Shown here: one piece after another, positions 10,053 through 19,016 of the stretch
Numbering within the stretch: the stretch's first letter is position 1
Layout: each line of letters begins with the position of its first letter
From: an uncultured Chlamydiae bacterium
GTDB taxonomy: Bacteria; Chlamydiota; Chlamydiia; Chlamydiales; JAJFMB01
Direction of reading: 5' to 3'
DNA: 64,000 bases
Assembly (NCBI GenBank): GCA_963696295.1
Contig: CAVOJR010000001.1
Span: 3,104,001-3,168,000, forward strand
Position numbers and translations under genes: made by a program
The notes under the pieces: model-generated
Told to the model about the DNA's origin: nothing
What the model saw: the letters and a program-made list of their open reading frames with translations, nothing else
Database searches by the model: none

Positions 10053-13000
10053 ATGAATGGCATGAATAATTCTTTTGAGAACGCGCTCCATTTGGCCGGC
10101 AAAGAGAATCTCCACCCTTTTTCCAGGCTCCCTACTCCTACAGATGACGGACCCCTGGCAAAAGAGACGGTTAAAGATGTGCAGGAGGTCAGCCGGCTGA
10201 TTGAAGAGCACTCCTGGCTTTCGGGCAAAGGAAAGTTCAATACGACCGGGCAGACACCCCCTGTAGACTTTAAACTCCTCTCCCTCCTCGCGGGAGATTC
10301 CTTTATCCATAAAACGGCGCTGGAAGGGTATGACTTAAAAAGTTCCCTGGAATTCTTCGGGAGCTTCTTCGACCGCCTGCCCAAAGAATTAGCTTGTAAA
10401 GCCACCTCTGAATTACAGGAGTGCCGCAAAATCGCCGAAAAATTGGATGAGCTCCGCCTGGCAGGAAAAGGGAAATCGAAAGAGGAACAGGGTCGGCTGG
10501 TCAAGGAATACGCCAAAAAAGTAAAAGAGAAATTTGAAAAAGAGGGCGCGCTGCTCATGCCCGGAGGGTGGAGATCAAAAACCGGAGAAAATCACGCCGT
10601 CCTCTACAAACTGGAAGCGGGTAAAGGGTTCACCATTTTCAACACGGGGAGCGGGGTTGAGAACCACCCGATGGCCCTTTTTGCCAAGGAAAAGGGGGAT
10701 GAATGGCGGTCCCAGCAGTTCCTTACCAAATCAGGGGTCGATGAAAAACGCCTCCATGATGAGGATTTTTACTGTTTTCTCATCGAAATGTATGTGCGGG
10801 GCGAATGGGACAATTTTGATCCCGACTCCAACACTTTCTACAATGGGCTCGACTTTCTCGGAGGGAAAATAGGGGAAAAAGACCCGCGCAAAAACCCGGA
10901 ATTCTTTAAGAAAAATCAGCGTTCGGGGACCTGTGCCATCAAAAGCATTACTGCGGCGCTCTACTACAGCCTGATGGATAATCAAAAGTATAAACCGCTG
11001 AAATTCTTATGGCAGTTTACGGCGCTGGCCAAATTTTGCCAAACGGAGTTAGCCACCCTTAAAAGAGAAGATTTGGATCTTTTAGAAGATTATATGGCAA
11101 ACTTGGCGGCTTCGGTTAAAAAATCCCCCTTAAAGGAGTGGCTGGCGGAGAGGCCGGAGCTTTTCGACGAGTTCAACGCGACTTTTTTTGATATCAGGGG
11201 CAGGATCGATCATTTGAAAAAAGAGCCGGCCCAGCATCTCCCCAAATTGAGCTTTGCCTACTCAGAGGGAGATTGCGGCCCTGTTCCGCTTGAAGACCCT
11301 GATACGAGTGTTTTTGAAAAGCAGGAAGCTTCACCAAGTGAACTCCCAGCTTACCAGGTTCCGGAGCGCCTTTCCAGGGCGAATGAGATTCGGACGAAAT
11401 TCAAAACGGTCAGCGGAAGCAACCTGCTGGAAACTCTCCGGGAGCTTCGAGAAGTAAAAGATTTTGTTTTAAAAGATAAATATATAAAGGATAACTTATC
11501 CAACGCAAAATATAACTTTAGACCATTCAGCTACCCGGCCATGAAGGGTGATTTGGCCGCTTTTCGCCTGACGCTGCAGGAGTGTGTCAAAGAGCTTGTT
11601 TTAAAAAATATCTGGAGTGATGTGCCGAAAAAGGATCTCCTCAACGCGATGGAAGAGATCCATCTTCTGATGAGCTCCCTGCAAGAGGTGGAATATCAGC
11701 TTAACTATAGAGATGAATTTCTCTCTCCCGCCTCCATTTCAGCCTCCTGGACCCTGATGTACGCCCTGTTATTGGGGCAAGAGACTTTAGCCAGGCAAAA
11801 TGAGGATCTCAAATTAGCCGGCTACCGGATCAATTACAGCGGTTTGCTGGAGCTTGCGAAAAATCCCGCGTTTATCTTAAAAGACCCTGATCTACTCAAG
11901 ATCTATAAAGACACCTTAAGCGCCTTCGATCCGGCCTTCAATTTTGACACGATGAATGTCAAACCCCAGCCCGACCCAAACGATTTTCTTTTCTCCTTGC
12001 CGCGACCTAAAAGCTGGTGGTCTGAAGAAGAGGGAGGTCATTTTGGAATGGTGATCACAAACAAAAATCTGGAGCAACCTGCCACTTTGCGATTTTTCAA
12101 GCAATTCACAAAGGAAGACGGAACCCCTCTGCTCGATAAGTTAGCGAAATTTTTCGGCCCCGGCTCTGAGATCCCACGAGAACTCCAGCTTTTAAGGGTC
12201 GATGCCGTTTTCCCGCTCATTTGCCAAAATCTCACGCATAATCATGAAGAAGTTGATGGGATCAAGATGTTTGACGATTGTTGGGGTTACGAACACCAAA
12301 AGGGTTCAAACCCCAAATCGTACTGGCTCAATCTTCGCATTAGCCGCTTATCTCAAAACTTTACCAGGAAAAACGATGATAAAGTCATCAACATGTCTAC
12401 CTATTATTCCCCTAACGGATACAACCAGCTTTTTAGTCAGGCAAACTTCGCGAAAAACCAAAATGAAGTCACTCCTAAACCTGAGCTCGCCAAAGAGGTC
12501 TCCCTTTCGGTGGAAACGTTTAAAGAGCTGATGATGCTCGGCCAGGATCCCAATGATGAGGCGATGCAGACCCTGGGATTTATCCGCAGCCACTGGTCGT
12601 TGCTCAAAAATCCCGATATTCGGGAGATGGTGGTGCATCACCTCTTCCGCCCTTTCAGGCTTTCCGATCCGCTCGCGTTGCGAAAAGAGCTTCTCCCGAA
12701 AATTGAGCAGTTTTTTCAGGAGGGGCTGGACCATTTCCTCGAATCGAACGACCTGGAGGTCTGCCTTTTTCTCGCAATGCTGGGCGATGGTGTTTCGAAG
12801 CACGTCAAAGAGGGGGATTTCTCTTTCCTCTATCCGTTTGTAGAAAAAATTATCCCTAAGATCAAATCGGAACCCCTTCTTTTAGAGGCGCATGCGGCCT
12901 TAGCGGTATTAGGGAAAAAGCCGGTCGATCTTTTCCGCTTCATTAGGCTTTACAACCAAAGCGAAAAAGAATCGGCCGATCTTTTCCATAAGTCCCCCCT

Positions 13001-19000: not shown

Positions 19001-19016
19001 CTGGCAGGATCAGTAA
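10053..19016 (+). CDS. Giant 2987-aa protein: N-terminal cysteine-protease-like domain plus DUF3638-like SF2 helicase/ATPase region
   Basis: His181, Asn197 and Q289-RSGT-C294. Walker A MPTGWGKT, DEGH, LSAT and QGMGRMR motifs. Confidence 0.75.
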   Translation: MNGMNNSFENALHLAGKENLHPFSRLPTPTDDGPLAKETVKDVQEVSRLIEEHSWLSGKGKFNTTGQTPPVDFKLLSLLAGDSFIHKTALEGYDLKSSLEFFGSFFDRLPKELACKATSELQECRKIAEKLDELRLAGKGKSKEEQGRLVKEYAKKVKEKFEKEGALLMPGGWRSKTGENHAVLYKLEAGKGFTIFNTGSGVENHPMALFAKEKGDEWRSQQFLTKSGVDEKRLHDEDFYCFLIEMYVRGEWDNFDPDSNTFYNGLDFLGGKIGEKDPRKNPEFFKKNQRSGTCAIKSITAALYYSLMDNQKYKPLKFLWQFTALAKFCQTELATLKREDLDLLEDYMANLAASVKKSPLKEWLAERPELFDEFNATFFDIRGRIDHLKKEPAQHLPKLSFAYSEGDCGPVPLEDPDTSVFEKQEASPSELPAYQVPERLSRANEIRTKFKTVSGSNLLETLRELREVKDFVLKDKYIKDNLSNAKYNFRPFSYPAMKGDLAAFRLTLQECVKELVLKNIWSDVPKKDLLNAMEEIHLLMSSLQEVEYQLNYRDEFLSPASISASWTLMYALLLGQETLARQNEDLKLAGYRINYSGLLELAKNPAFILKDPDLLKIYKDTLSAFDPAFNFDTMNVKPQPDPNDFLFSLPRPKSWWSEEEGGHFGMVITNKNLEQPATLRFFKQFTKEDGTPLLDKLAKFFGPGSEIPRELQLLRVDAVFPLICQNLTHNHEEVDGIKMFDDCWGYEHQKGSNPKSYWLNLRISRLSQNFTRKNDDKVINMSTYYSPNGYNQLFSQANFAKNQNEVTPKPELAKEVSLSVETFKELMMLGQDPNDEAMQTLGFIRSHWSLLKNPDIREMVVHHLFRPFRLSDPLALRKELLPKIEQFFQEGLDHFLESNDLEVCLFLAMLGDGVSKHVKEGDFSFLYPFVEKIIPKIKSEPLLLEAHAALAVLGKKPVDLFRFIRLYNQSEKESADLFHKSPLSDPLFLYQKMVEAMGDNLPDGEKICQEILPTATPFKKIGPFCYSNGTYQINLIEGEVRALNALLSKLPLELAKNPVLLTLCKGNLGEIKQINANTYELPLHGIKVHQGKEVQFAKKIDGKWYTLVNNNICQKIPSLQPEFCWMNFEKTEILGMKGDQLLFKMAGKYAGAEFHIEKVTKGDKEWIPFEKVDGSLKWLKDIEGNIECWGAANRVEKIDLIQSGLHFSTRGNGKAYSLEHPGFFLLPEKVAGIGIPHLVLQNSQGEKRVLLSDRKDKWLEYALLDGQLTSQKVENRLFLLEFYLVKKEYQAAKKILLKLNPLDRFSKGERDILARILESLSKNHHPGARVQLMQIASLIEENNLKFPLHVNEVESSLLTYKEVGKPILEALNDTSNLLPYGFTETMEKAALELARATLIEAIKSGETGLSAKLFSMDYQFGKRLAYLTTGKGRLGINKIVFPFMAGGAGNVDKDFGEYFSEHAAKDLHTLLSEARVNLHSFITPSGHSFCQYYVIARHGSEEDKIRLAKVLQFQQINASLAAHLKRCMKNPKEYPDIKVLGTLWKDEKNQAPYTAELAKFHSIQTPFWKILFLLGGLMKNEAVNYLYSLFANTFVRKSEPMVKGATFDKRAQEVKKRDKDEEERLAALTARYFSFVKDGVKAAPPPIPQPKNASDNVIKKIEKENQDLAEAIKDLPVQGAWSLKGDLAALEKELKSDIEKKSLHLKSYKTHLISRANWVPLNDKMKVAGMLSQRNTLDFDELVKQFLTGDFEKTELNAAQKEELFASIADYMMQMTRLKQLNQAMRLIERYKQEKKSVILEGIPKILLVLRHHDIEKQNREFLPFELANGYLYRKEQIDKIEELLGFEDPHILAEMPTGWGKTKTLVPTLNELMAKSGKLLLNIWPASLELTNAIDVQNQMEQSFGKQVDRILFNRQTGFDSKSLQFLVNNMKECQALGKPVNARPETIRALELHFLLALYTLKHESLGAATPELRKKVELLGEILRLFRKEGWAAVDEGHINFDPFDMLIYTLGESKRLPDEQVEVIESLFDILQDYREDFHFELNRQQFLSEKRYQEIAPELAEKIARRLSLDAALIPDFKEFAIGKKTPDWLEEHPDRGRLSLAKGLICHLLKSSLEGAVEETFGLSKLHISSKEYAIPYARSNTPKETAQSPSQYKNPHETFTKTYITYLYRGLEPSQVKTLITTLKQEMETSLADGVPPAECPANKLYQSFFKGKAPNMLLHLTDKEIDELTGDLKKNPKAIFTYIRYVIARQLPLYPLHFKSTAQNFLSQFAKSLTLSATPPDAVSHNKAAKFVPMKGISGKVSYLMLTKGVTWRVVKEELPKEVLQRAQDFSHNVRAIVDTGALFKGLSNREVALALKKGLQQPEIEGFVYFDEKGEKFKVLYKNSDEPQDLEDCEIPPEKLITYYDQSRALGSDIAQAEDAVARILIGKGTTKAAAGQGMGRMRKIHQNQGVEWMVQAPVAEEIKKLYGTDSLKGEEGVGYMIANQAEEEADNNYEALTQQMDNEIRNGMMDQLLSQDVGQALNYFDQFEEHLVGVESTDPYELYAKVSLDRDPRTQVKEGKTVKGCLEEHLDLCLSKLERIKGLKGKEQIKQSLEGYRAKCRDKEIPLPAKVKSPAIESGLDCEVLLDINQQLEMQQQAQIEEGMAIRKPWKFPEELDLFATAFEKTASVNPLPNLFIQGLNMVYRTFNAPYSAIKTRLNSGDFIGWSSLFIGLPFYIIEKITIDPMKWAWKHLSGSLSDQCSIYTVADVIHTRITPKLLGFFSKNLLVSNNFFRVKVHLEETYPETPFSQEQKPLFHVLVIQDKEQLKMMLIDQNDSAYFHRKLRRDFLHTPQDVADKRERKLAIYDLRNGIIVQGKNGFTGLEKNPAFQELLVQARLLNGEVLFNQEELAFIEKNKVEGLGEFLQTHVLVHHTLNRNLYPQTALGKLLGVKKKPPAPAPKKAPRLKFGELGERLVRPGFFDPGAFRPLIHFTWQDQ

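Follow-up and report, generated by a model that had tools for sequence, protein, structure and literature searches.

Giant proteins of the DUF3638/DUF3645/DUF6606 type (PF12340, PF12359 and PF20255) are found in fungi, protists, Klosneuvirinae and chlamydiae. DUF3638 has been noted in a microsporidian gene family (PMC5423893) and as a polymorphic clubroot effector candidate (bioRxiv 10.64898/2026.10.14.759018), and a third source gives its function as undefined (PMC12615304). The family is catalogued but undescribed: the literature searched, a set without subscription papers and supplements, held no function for it and no account of the architecture reported here, and tables in annotation papers on chlamydiae or viruses may list such proteins. 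Here we analyze a member encoded in a window of 64,000 nucleotides (contig CAVOJR010000001.1, positions 3,104,001 to 3,168,000) from an uncultured Chlamydiae bacterium. A single uninterrupted open reading frame (ORF; 10053–19016, plus strand, zero internal stops) specifies a DUF3638-family giant of 2,987 amino acids (aa), in which a cysteine-protease-like head, predicted to share the fold of LegA15 and AnkH, is followed by an ATPase predicted to resemble SecA. The reading we prefer, with somewhat less than even confidence, is that of a polypeptide motor, driven by ATP and directed at the host, that passes its substrate to a thiol protease head.

The closest described relatives of the head are LegA15/AnkD and AnkH/LegA3 (7EW8, 7KJ6, 7XQL, 6MCA). 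The AnkH domain is described as XopD-like, carries His243-Asp258-Cys324 and is required in infection, and AnkH targets the 7SK small nuclear ribonucleoprotein (snRNP) component LARP7; no protease activity was detected in vitro (PMC6712400). LegA15 presents His268-Asn290-Cys361 together with Gln356 and is reported as a GTPase, an activity that needs Cys361 and is little affected by H268A (PMC9757750). The head of the giant (aa 72–357; 10266–11123) has the same predicted fold, the same His-Asn/Asp-Cys order, a GHA-like His motif and the Gln-x4-Cys spacing of LegA15 (Gln356-Cys361); it differs in its low identity (11–12%), in lacking ankyrin repeats and in being joined to a 2,600-aa motor-bearing body.

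The fold assignment rests on an AlphaFold2 (AF2) model of aa 60–360, built from 54 sequences with a predicted local distance difference test (pLDDT) score of 93.2. With this model Foldseek retrieved only LegA15/AnkD and AnkH at E < 0.001. A wide structure search with VIA returned AnkD (7EW8) at Z 17.4, with 3.3 as the root-mean-square deviation (rmsd) over 236 aligned residues, and AnkH at Z 14.9; the match to both proteins was confirmed (Z 17.4 and 15.0, 235–241 aligned, rmsd 3.3–3.5), the next unrelated rows falling below 6. An earlier note on this DNA, made from its letters, had described the head as a CE-clan-like protease or deubiquitinase (DUB). Of that description a CE-clan-related fold, with an adenain-type core, probably survives through the match to the XopD-like domain of AnkH, but LegA15/AnkD and AnkH are the nearest structures, and the true CE-clan proteases of ubiquitin-like (Ubl) proteins reach only Z 4.3–5.7 (NEDP1 5.7, SENP7 5.7, XopD 5.6, Ulp1 4.8, RavZ 4.8, ChlaDUB1 4.3, and I7L within this range), values under 6 that lie within the stated background of VIA and are intermixed with unrelated helical proteins. 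An atlas search placed the head among unnamed clusters with low recognition and offered a weak YopJ acetyltransferase match (score 0.80), which serves as a lead only.

In sequence, Pfam, NCBIfam and PDB-sequence searches gave no match for the head, and none of the 54 head members matched the AnkD/LegA15 model directly. The head family is linked in sequence to AnkD/LegA15 indirectly, via an 889-aa protein of the host genome that matches the head profile (domain E 2.2e-4) and also the AnkD/LegA15 model NF043020 (positions 254–375, E 2.2e-6). This protein (C1:2868208-2870877) consists of ankyrin repeats and then a terminal domain of the LegA15/AnkH type, in which His, Asn and a Gln...Cys segment are present, and is a chlamydial counterpart of the Legionella architecture that joins ankyrin repeats to a LegA15/AnkH domain.

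The putative catalytic residues named in the earlier note were found where it put them, in ENHAVLY from residue 179 (His181), FNTG from 196 (Asn197) and QRSGTC from 289 (Gln289 and Cys294). Their conservation was followed with a profile built from 18 chlamydial heads, which retrieved 3,529 clusters (50% identity) at E up to 0.001; the 154 proteins counted here are its top matches (the best 150 of the 3,529 clusters), a set biased towards intact heads. His181 and Cys294 are each kept in 153 of the 154, Asn197 in 151 and Gln289 in 149; His, Asn/Asp and Cys occur together in 150, and all four, in the H-N-Q-C order, in 147. The other conserved positions are E91-G92, G172-W173, the remainder of N197-x-G-x-G, H205, Y263 and G292 within Q289-x-x-G292-x-C294. 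In the model, the predicted general base His181 (10593–10595), followed by Ala182, stands at the start of a strand (model residues 122–129 by DSSP), the predicted third triad residue Asn197 (10641–10643) at the end of the next strand, and the predicted oxyanion Gln289 and nucleophile Cys294 (10917–10934) lead into a helix (model 235–248) with the Cys at its N-terminus; these positions fit the strand/strand/helix placement described for AnkH (PMC6712400). In 2,000 shuffles neither the motif pattern for the head nor that for the motor was matched once, the patterns having been set post hoc. We read the head as a putative triad enzyme and most likely a protease that lacks Gly-Gly selection.

For the motor, the best described comparison is SecA, in which the substrate pairs as a β-strand with two connecting strands, 219–224 and 351–356, F182 contacts the substrate, and the catalytic residues are Q85, K106, D207, E208, D492, Q521, R525 and R528 (PMC9926265). 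DUF3638 (PF12340), mentioned in the earlier note as a type of giant protein, is the sole Pfam match of the giant above cut-off (aa 1818–2040, E 1.7e-12, 47.5 bits against a cut-off of 31) and is matched by 29 of 30 relatives of the giant; DUF3645 (PF12359) and DUF6606 (PF20255) were not detected by Pfam in the 2,987-aa protein, and PF12359 matched weakly in 2 of the 30 relatives. The SF2 helicase-like ATPase of that note is indeed an SF2 ATPase, is intact and falls in the DUF3638 family; the motifs that the note listed are MPTGWGKT at 1856, DEGH at 1998, SAT at 2284 and QGMGRMR at 2446. The model of this ATPase, however, comes closest to SecA, not to the nucleic-acid helicases.

The motor (aa 1811–2544; 15483–17684) is predicted to comprise two RecA folds, a clamp-like insert and a scaffold-like helix. 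Its ATPase motifs are kept in 95–99 of 99 long homologs and are near-invariant in 72 further domains. Among the 99, the Q-motif Gln1837 (15561–15563) is present in 98; the Gly and Lys1862 of Walker A (15618–15641), which is preceded by AEM as in SecA, in all; the Asp and Glu of Walker B (16044–16055) likewise in all, the family showing DExD in 76 and DExH in 21; the Thr of motif III (16902–16910) in 95; and Gln2446, Arg2450 and Arg2452 of motif VI (17388–17408) in 98 each. Motif V reads D2414...G2420-S-D2422 (17292–17318), with Asp at the D2414 position in 85. Q1837, K1862, D1998/E1999, D2422, Q2446, R2450 and R2452 are the motor counterparts of the SecA catalytic residues.

The structural comparison used a model of aa 1769–2544 (72 sequences, pLDDT 93.5), which ends at aa 2544; Foldseek, proposed in the earlier note as a check, was run on this and on the head model. 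All 13 motor rows before the first DinG row were SecA or SecA2 (best E 5e-10, against 1.6e-6 for DinG). An independent search of 48,161 chains ranked Escherichia coli SecA first (Z 17.1, rmsd 4.5, 402 aligned), followed by SecA2 (16.7), DinG (14.1) and others at 13.8 or below, and in a second structural look rows 1–22 were SecA, with DinG next. Substrate-engaged SecA structures 5EUL and 6ITC align over 524 and 512 residues, most other SecA entries over about 400 and DinG over 338–357; the SecA alignments mostly reach model residues 764–776, whereas those of DinG end at 725–727. Because the substrate-engaged forms align over the greatest length, the insert may represent a PPXD clamp in the closed position. 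This insert is helical and lies between strands 2010–14 and 2264–68 (aa 2010–2268; 16080–16856, from DSSP), predicted to be equivalent to the SecA connecting strands, whose distances from Walker B and motif III they share. From the second strand to motif III the alignment is gapless, ST-AQNFLSQFAKSLTLSAT against IT-LQNYFRLYEKLAGMTGT, and has a Q-N-aromatic register with the chlamydial SecAs; Walker B and motif III are 286 aa apart here, 277–293 in four SecAs and 231 in DinG. Beyond the second RecA fold, a 41-residue helix (aa 2483–2523; 17499–17621; model residues 715–755 by DSSP) is predicted to correspond to the long scaffold helix of SecA.

Several results weigh against the reading of a SecA-like motor that feeds a protease. 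Some 1,500 residues separate the head from the motor, and contact between the two is putative; neither structural relative of the head has shown proteolysis, AnkH having none in vitro (PMC6712400) and LegA15 being a GTPase (PMC9757750). A comparison of the motor by HHalign with SecA and with seven SF2 controls failed to separate them and gave SecA no advantage: SecA scored 36.6 as a profile and 24–30 as single sequences, against 45.0 for DinG and 40.2, 39.7, 37.6 and 37.0 for other SF2 proteins. None of 30 motors had a SecA match in Pfam or NCBIfam (TIGR00963), a PDB-sequence search with the motor gave nothing significant (best E 0.015, Walker A only), and the Z gap between SecA and DinG is only about 3 units. 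Identity to SecA is 10–16%; motif VI has the spacing R+4/R+6, its second Arg coming one residue sooner than that of SecA; no insert of the size of the SecA wing was aligned; and no counterpart of F182 is evident in the motor, A, S or C occupying the matching helix position. Profile comparison failed to detect the two-helix finger (score 11.1, against 7.6–16.3 in 20 shuffles), the likeness of the scaffold helix is not significant by sequence similarity alone, and the C-terminal region showed no profile match to SecA. Finally, the conserved Arg1916 (88/99) could bind nucleic acid. The motor would work like SecA at most and is not SecA itself; the host genome has a separate secA, and the motor of the giant sits in one chain with a thiol head.

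With these reservations, a working cycle can be sketched. ATP hydrolysis would close the two RecA domains, as in SecA, and an extended polypeptide would pair as a β-strand with strands 2010–14 and 2264–68 beneath the clamp-like insert and then be ratcheted along. The head would bind the target and cut it with Cys294, without the Gly-Gly preference associated with ubiquitin; in relatives with a dead triad, binding would be all that the head does, and the protein would be an unfoldase or extractor. The site of action is probably the inside of a protist host cell, and a host-directed effector role, as the earlier note had supposed, is plausible. Delivery may occur through a type III system, a suggestion made because of the host lifestyle, the expansion in copy number and the ankyrin and leucine-rich repeat (LRR) additions of relatives; the host genome encodes an SctV/FlhA-family gene. 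The variable N-terminal leader (aa 1–70; 10053–10262), which aligns poorly among homologs, could bear a type III secretion signal.

AAA+ ring motors such as ClpXP, Lon, FtsH and p97 with its DUBs couple the handling of polypeptides to a peptidase. The giant is related to these by functional analogy only, being a single chain with a two-RecA SF2 motor, a clamp and a CE-like head. It is possible, though doubtful, that the DUF3638 giants as a whole are an unrecognized class of single-chain ATP-dependent proteases and unfoldases, in which a SecY-independent clamp motor of the SecA type threads polypeptides past a CE-like thiol head, used by chlamydiae and giant viruses against protists, with fungi keeping head-dead extractors.

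Other accounts of the giant differ in the chemistry of the head or in the substrate of the motor. A SecA-like motor might hold its target for a head that does not cut and instead modifies or marks it by YopJ-type acyl transfer or LegA15-like GTP hydrolysis. This is rather unlikely, even though the closest structure, LegA15, binds and hydrolyzes GTP via Cys361 (PMC9757750), acetyltransferases and enzymes with dual activity are known among CE-clan folds (PMC13720258; PMC13125535), and the position three residues after Cys is kept basic (K in 75 and R in 50 of the 154 heads). By a register inferred from motif spacing rather than from residue-level superposition, the giant has Thr198, Gly292 and Thr300 at the positions of LegA15 Arg291, Asp359 and Lys367, and the 154 heads have T/L/S (R in 8), Gly (in 152) and M/L/S/T, so the basic GTP-binding residues of LegA15 are not retained; moreover, His is kept in 153 of the 154, as triad chemistry needs, while H268A is reported to have little effect on the GTPase of LegA15 (PMC9757750). 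The earlier proposal of a DUB or Ubl isopeptidase, whose ATPase would regulate the head or strip ubiquitinated targets, fares less well and is improbable. The giant shares with CE-clan DUBs and Ubl proteases (ChlaDUB1, SnCE1, XopD, NEDP1/SENP8, Ulp1, RavZ) the clan H-N-Q-C order, with His before Cys and the Gln, and a weak fold match, NEDP1, SENP7 and XopD being the next folds after LegA15 and AnkH (Z 5.6–5.7), but it departs from them in its Gln-x4-Cys spacing and far larger helical lobes and has no sequence match to them. A His-aromatic pair is the mark of DUBs and Ubl proteases that cleave after Gly-Gly, those of the CE clan included (PMC7391069). Since the residue after His is Ala in 130 of the 154 heads and aromatic in 3, DUB activity is unlikely; the Z scores below 6 are at the background of the search tool, and the triad has been lost at least several times. 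The gatekeeper is dispensable for SnJos1/2, which cleave chains without it, and chlamydia-like bacteria are rich in DUBs (PMC10643670); in the head, Trp173 (aromatic in 148 of the 154) might replace it. RavZ likewise is described as lacking an aromatic gatekeeper (PMC7391069), and the head may be an isopeptidase of the Atg8/UFM1 type, RavZ-like and gatekeeper-less. Eukaryotic and viral relatives carry the database label 'ubiquitinyl hydrolase 1', but this label is automatic, and fungal proteins that bear it have an N-terminus without a match to the head profile (DUF6606 in 7). The claim that ATP merely regulates the protease was not borne out, the triad having been lost repeatedly while the motor was retained.

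A different possibility is that the motor translocates nucleic acid in the manner of DinG/XPD, so that host DNA, RNA or ribonucleoprotein would be the substrate of the giant and the thiol head an accessory enzyme. This unlikely account draws on DinG as the next structural neighbor (Z 14.1–14.4), which also carries an insert after motif II and before motif III and has the top HHalign score, on the DExH signature of the giant, on the conserved Arg1916 and on a motif Ic Thr in 57 of the 99 long homologs. AnkH, in addition, targets LARP7 of the 7SK snRNP (PMC6712400). Yet SecA stands above DinG in three structural searches, aligning over 50–170 more residues that include the helix after the second RecA fold, and in the giant itself the motif Ic Thr is replaced by Arg. 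Thr/Ser residues of motifs Ia and V bind the nucleic-acid backbone in SF2 helicases, the motif V Thr contacting a backbone phosphate. In the motor, no conserved Thr-Arg follows Pro1886 in motif Ia, so that backbone-binding Thr/Ser residues of this kind are missing there, and the motif V Asp replaces the Thr of SecA and of 4 of 5 control SF2 helicases from the host genome; the Asp argues against nucleic-acid binding, yet it also departs from SecA. There is, similarly, only a small chance that the motor serves the giant itself, unfolding its own polypeptide or pushing it across a channel for secretion or the vacuole membrane while the head processes the protein and releases pieces. Self-export has been proposed for SecA-like domains in giants from Omnitrophota (bioRxiv 10.1101/2023.11.21.568195), a protein of 3,000 aa is a difficult secretion substrate, and a chlamydial CE enzyme autoprocesses (PMC13125535). 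Unlike the Omnitrophota proteins, however, the giant has no transmembrane anchor or signal peptide, its head-middle-motor layout also occurs in fungi, protists and giant viruses, which have no such bacterial export step, and the finger that engages SecY was not detected by profile comparison. SecA-like domains are also mentioned in Amoebophilus effectors (PMC3482391).

The preferred reading, a polypeptide motor that feeds a thiol head, can be set against the history of the family. The fusion of head and motor is old, and the giant is far from unique in having it: among head-bearing proteins of at least 2,300 aa, 99 of 100 also carry the motor. A recent or genome-specific fusion was accordingly rejected, since the architecture is common to these long homologs and the 13 copies of the host genome are scattered over the motor tree; an assembly chimera was rejected because homologs are collinear along the whole length. 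When 59 proteins were picked by the motor instead, the head was detectable in 39 and its triad intact in 23. On a midpoint-rooted FastTree phylogeny with long branches, built from 85 motors after 2 of 87 had been removed because of low coverage, the triad switches between intact and dead at least seven times among 57 labeled rows. The ATPase core is intact in 46/46 rows with an intact head, 10/11 with a dead head, 8/8 with a partial head and 15/20 with none, most failures being alignment gaps. The motor is kept while the triad is repeatedly lost, which makes the motor the constant part and head catalysis optional.

Among 150 other genomes of the phylum, 66 yielded the motor and 76 the head, and the 27 genomes searched of one family (f36) had neither; named bacterial relatives are filed under Parachlamydia, Waddliaceae, Chlamydiales and Simkania-labeled records. 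Eukaryotic motor homologs come from Thecamonas, Beauveria, Coniophora, Cordyceps, Xylaria and one record filed under a midge, and share the motor motifs. Each of the 9 eukaryote-type proteins searched with a profile of the middle region was matched (best E 8e-10 to 1e-55), so that PF12340, the motor and the middle region are common ground with the DUF3638 giants, and the head is shared with Thecamonas and Klosneuvirinae. The giant differs from these in its full triad. In the head of Thecamonas AMSG_00592 (E 9e-21) the Cys is replaced by Ser, and the match between fungal DUF6606 and the head is weak and no more than suggestive (E 0.087, score 18.8, against at most 15 for 14 controls); nine Klosneuvirinae models match the head fold.

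Of the 13 motor copies in the host genome, eight have an intact triad, one a dead triad and two a partly aligned head, and in two the head was undetected; two of the copies are neighbors on the second contig, which measures 135 kb. Four of the 13 are split into two collinear ORFs. The secA gene (C1:1260365-1263397) and the SctV/FlhA-family gene (C1:256120-258152) each lie in several frames, the latter in three pieces, and because these genes are broken too, the four split copies are probably assembly errors; real two-gene versions were rejected on the same grounds, the split copies being collinear halves. The assembly, made of two contigs with the window on the 3.30-Mb one, thus seems to contain indel errors, and 'pseudogenes' of this genome need care. 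At the giant itself, short contigs from four soil metagenome runs cover the ORF patchily at 99%+ identity and without indels, none spanning it.

Heads also occur apart from the motor. Three motor-less head proteins of 467–720 aa are encoded in the host genome (C1:2480900-2482615, C1:2483481-2485640 and C2:101869-103269), short ORFs of this kind recur in many relatives (some of the ORFs may be contig fragments), and the 4,732-aa relative P0013 has a head at aa 2799–3118 and no motor. In other relatives (P0010, P0171, P0186, P0187, P0124, P0190 and P0206) the core is accompanied by ankyrin, LRR, thioredoxin, EF-hand or WWE domains.

With the head alone, the family comprises the 3,529 clusters noted above and is expanded in environmental chlamydiae. 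The predicted LegA15/AnkH-type head and SecA-like motor give this large, unstudied family a testable job, and the 'ubiquitinyl hydrolase' label on many of its members is unsupported by the gatekeeper test. An intact-triad member such as the giant is a good place to settle the function of the disputed LegA15/AnkH fold, and a SecA-type motor without SecY, if true, would widen the known kinds of protein-remodeling machines.

The rest of the protein is less readily assigned. The long middle region (aa 358–1768; 11124–15356), parts of which are homologous to eukaryotic DUF3638 giants, has no Pfam match, and an atlas search of aa 701–1768 gave nothing usable. The C-terminal region (aa 2545–2987; 17685–19013) contains P-x3-[YF]-G, a stretch rich in E/Q and a conserved K/R-F/L-L-N-G block; P2549 and [YF]2553 of the first element are kept in 60 and 84 of the 99 long homologs, respectively. 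No signal peptide or transmembrane helix is apparent in the 2,987-aa protein, the highest 19-residue Kyte-Doolittle mean being 1.36.

The DNA around the giant looks like an effector-rich stretch. Orphan ORFs without significant Pfam matches flank the giant on both sides (4786–9966 and 19191–25889), one of them encoding 1,078 aa and containing 11-residue repeats; immediately upstream of the giant is a 256-aa protein rich in Ser and Pro, and immediately downstream a coiled-coil-like protein of 322 aa. A conserved operon partner was rejected, the neighbors of the giant in the host genome being orphans. The host genome also contains a weak OmcB-type match, below cut-off, which together with the SctV/FlhA-family gene and the named bacterial relatives makes the organism a likely environmental chlamydia. 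A tetratricopeptide repeat (TPR) protein at 1925–2689 (TPR_3, TPR_19), with seven paralogs in the host genome, presumably resembles type III chaperones. Further along, 26253–38233 holds classical menaquinone genes (by Pfam, UbiE/MenG, MenE, MenC, MenA, MenB, MenH-like, MenD and MenF-like), and at 45825–48186 a low-molecular-weight phosphatase adjoins a kinase-FGE-sulfatase fusion (Pfam), an arrangement that we take to be that of chlamydial Pkn1.

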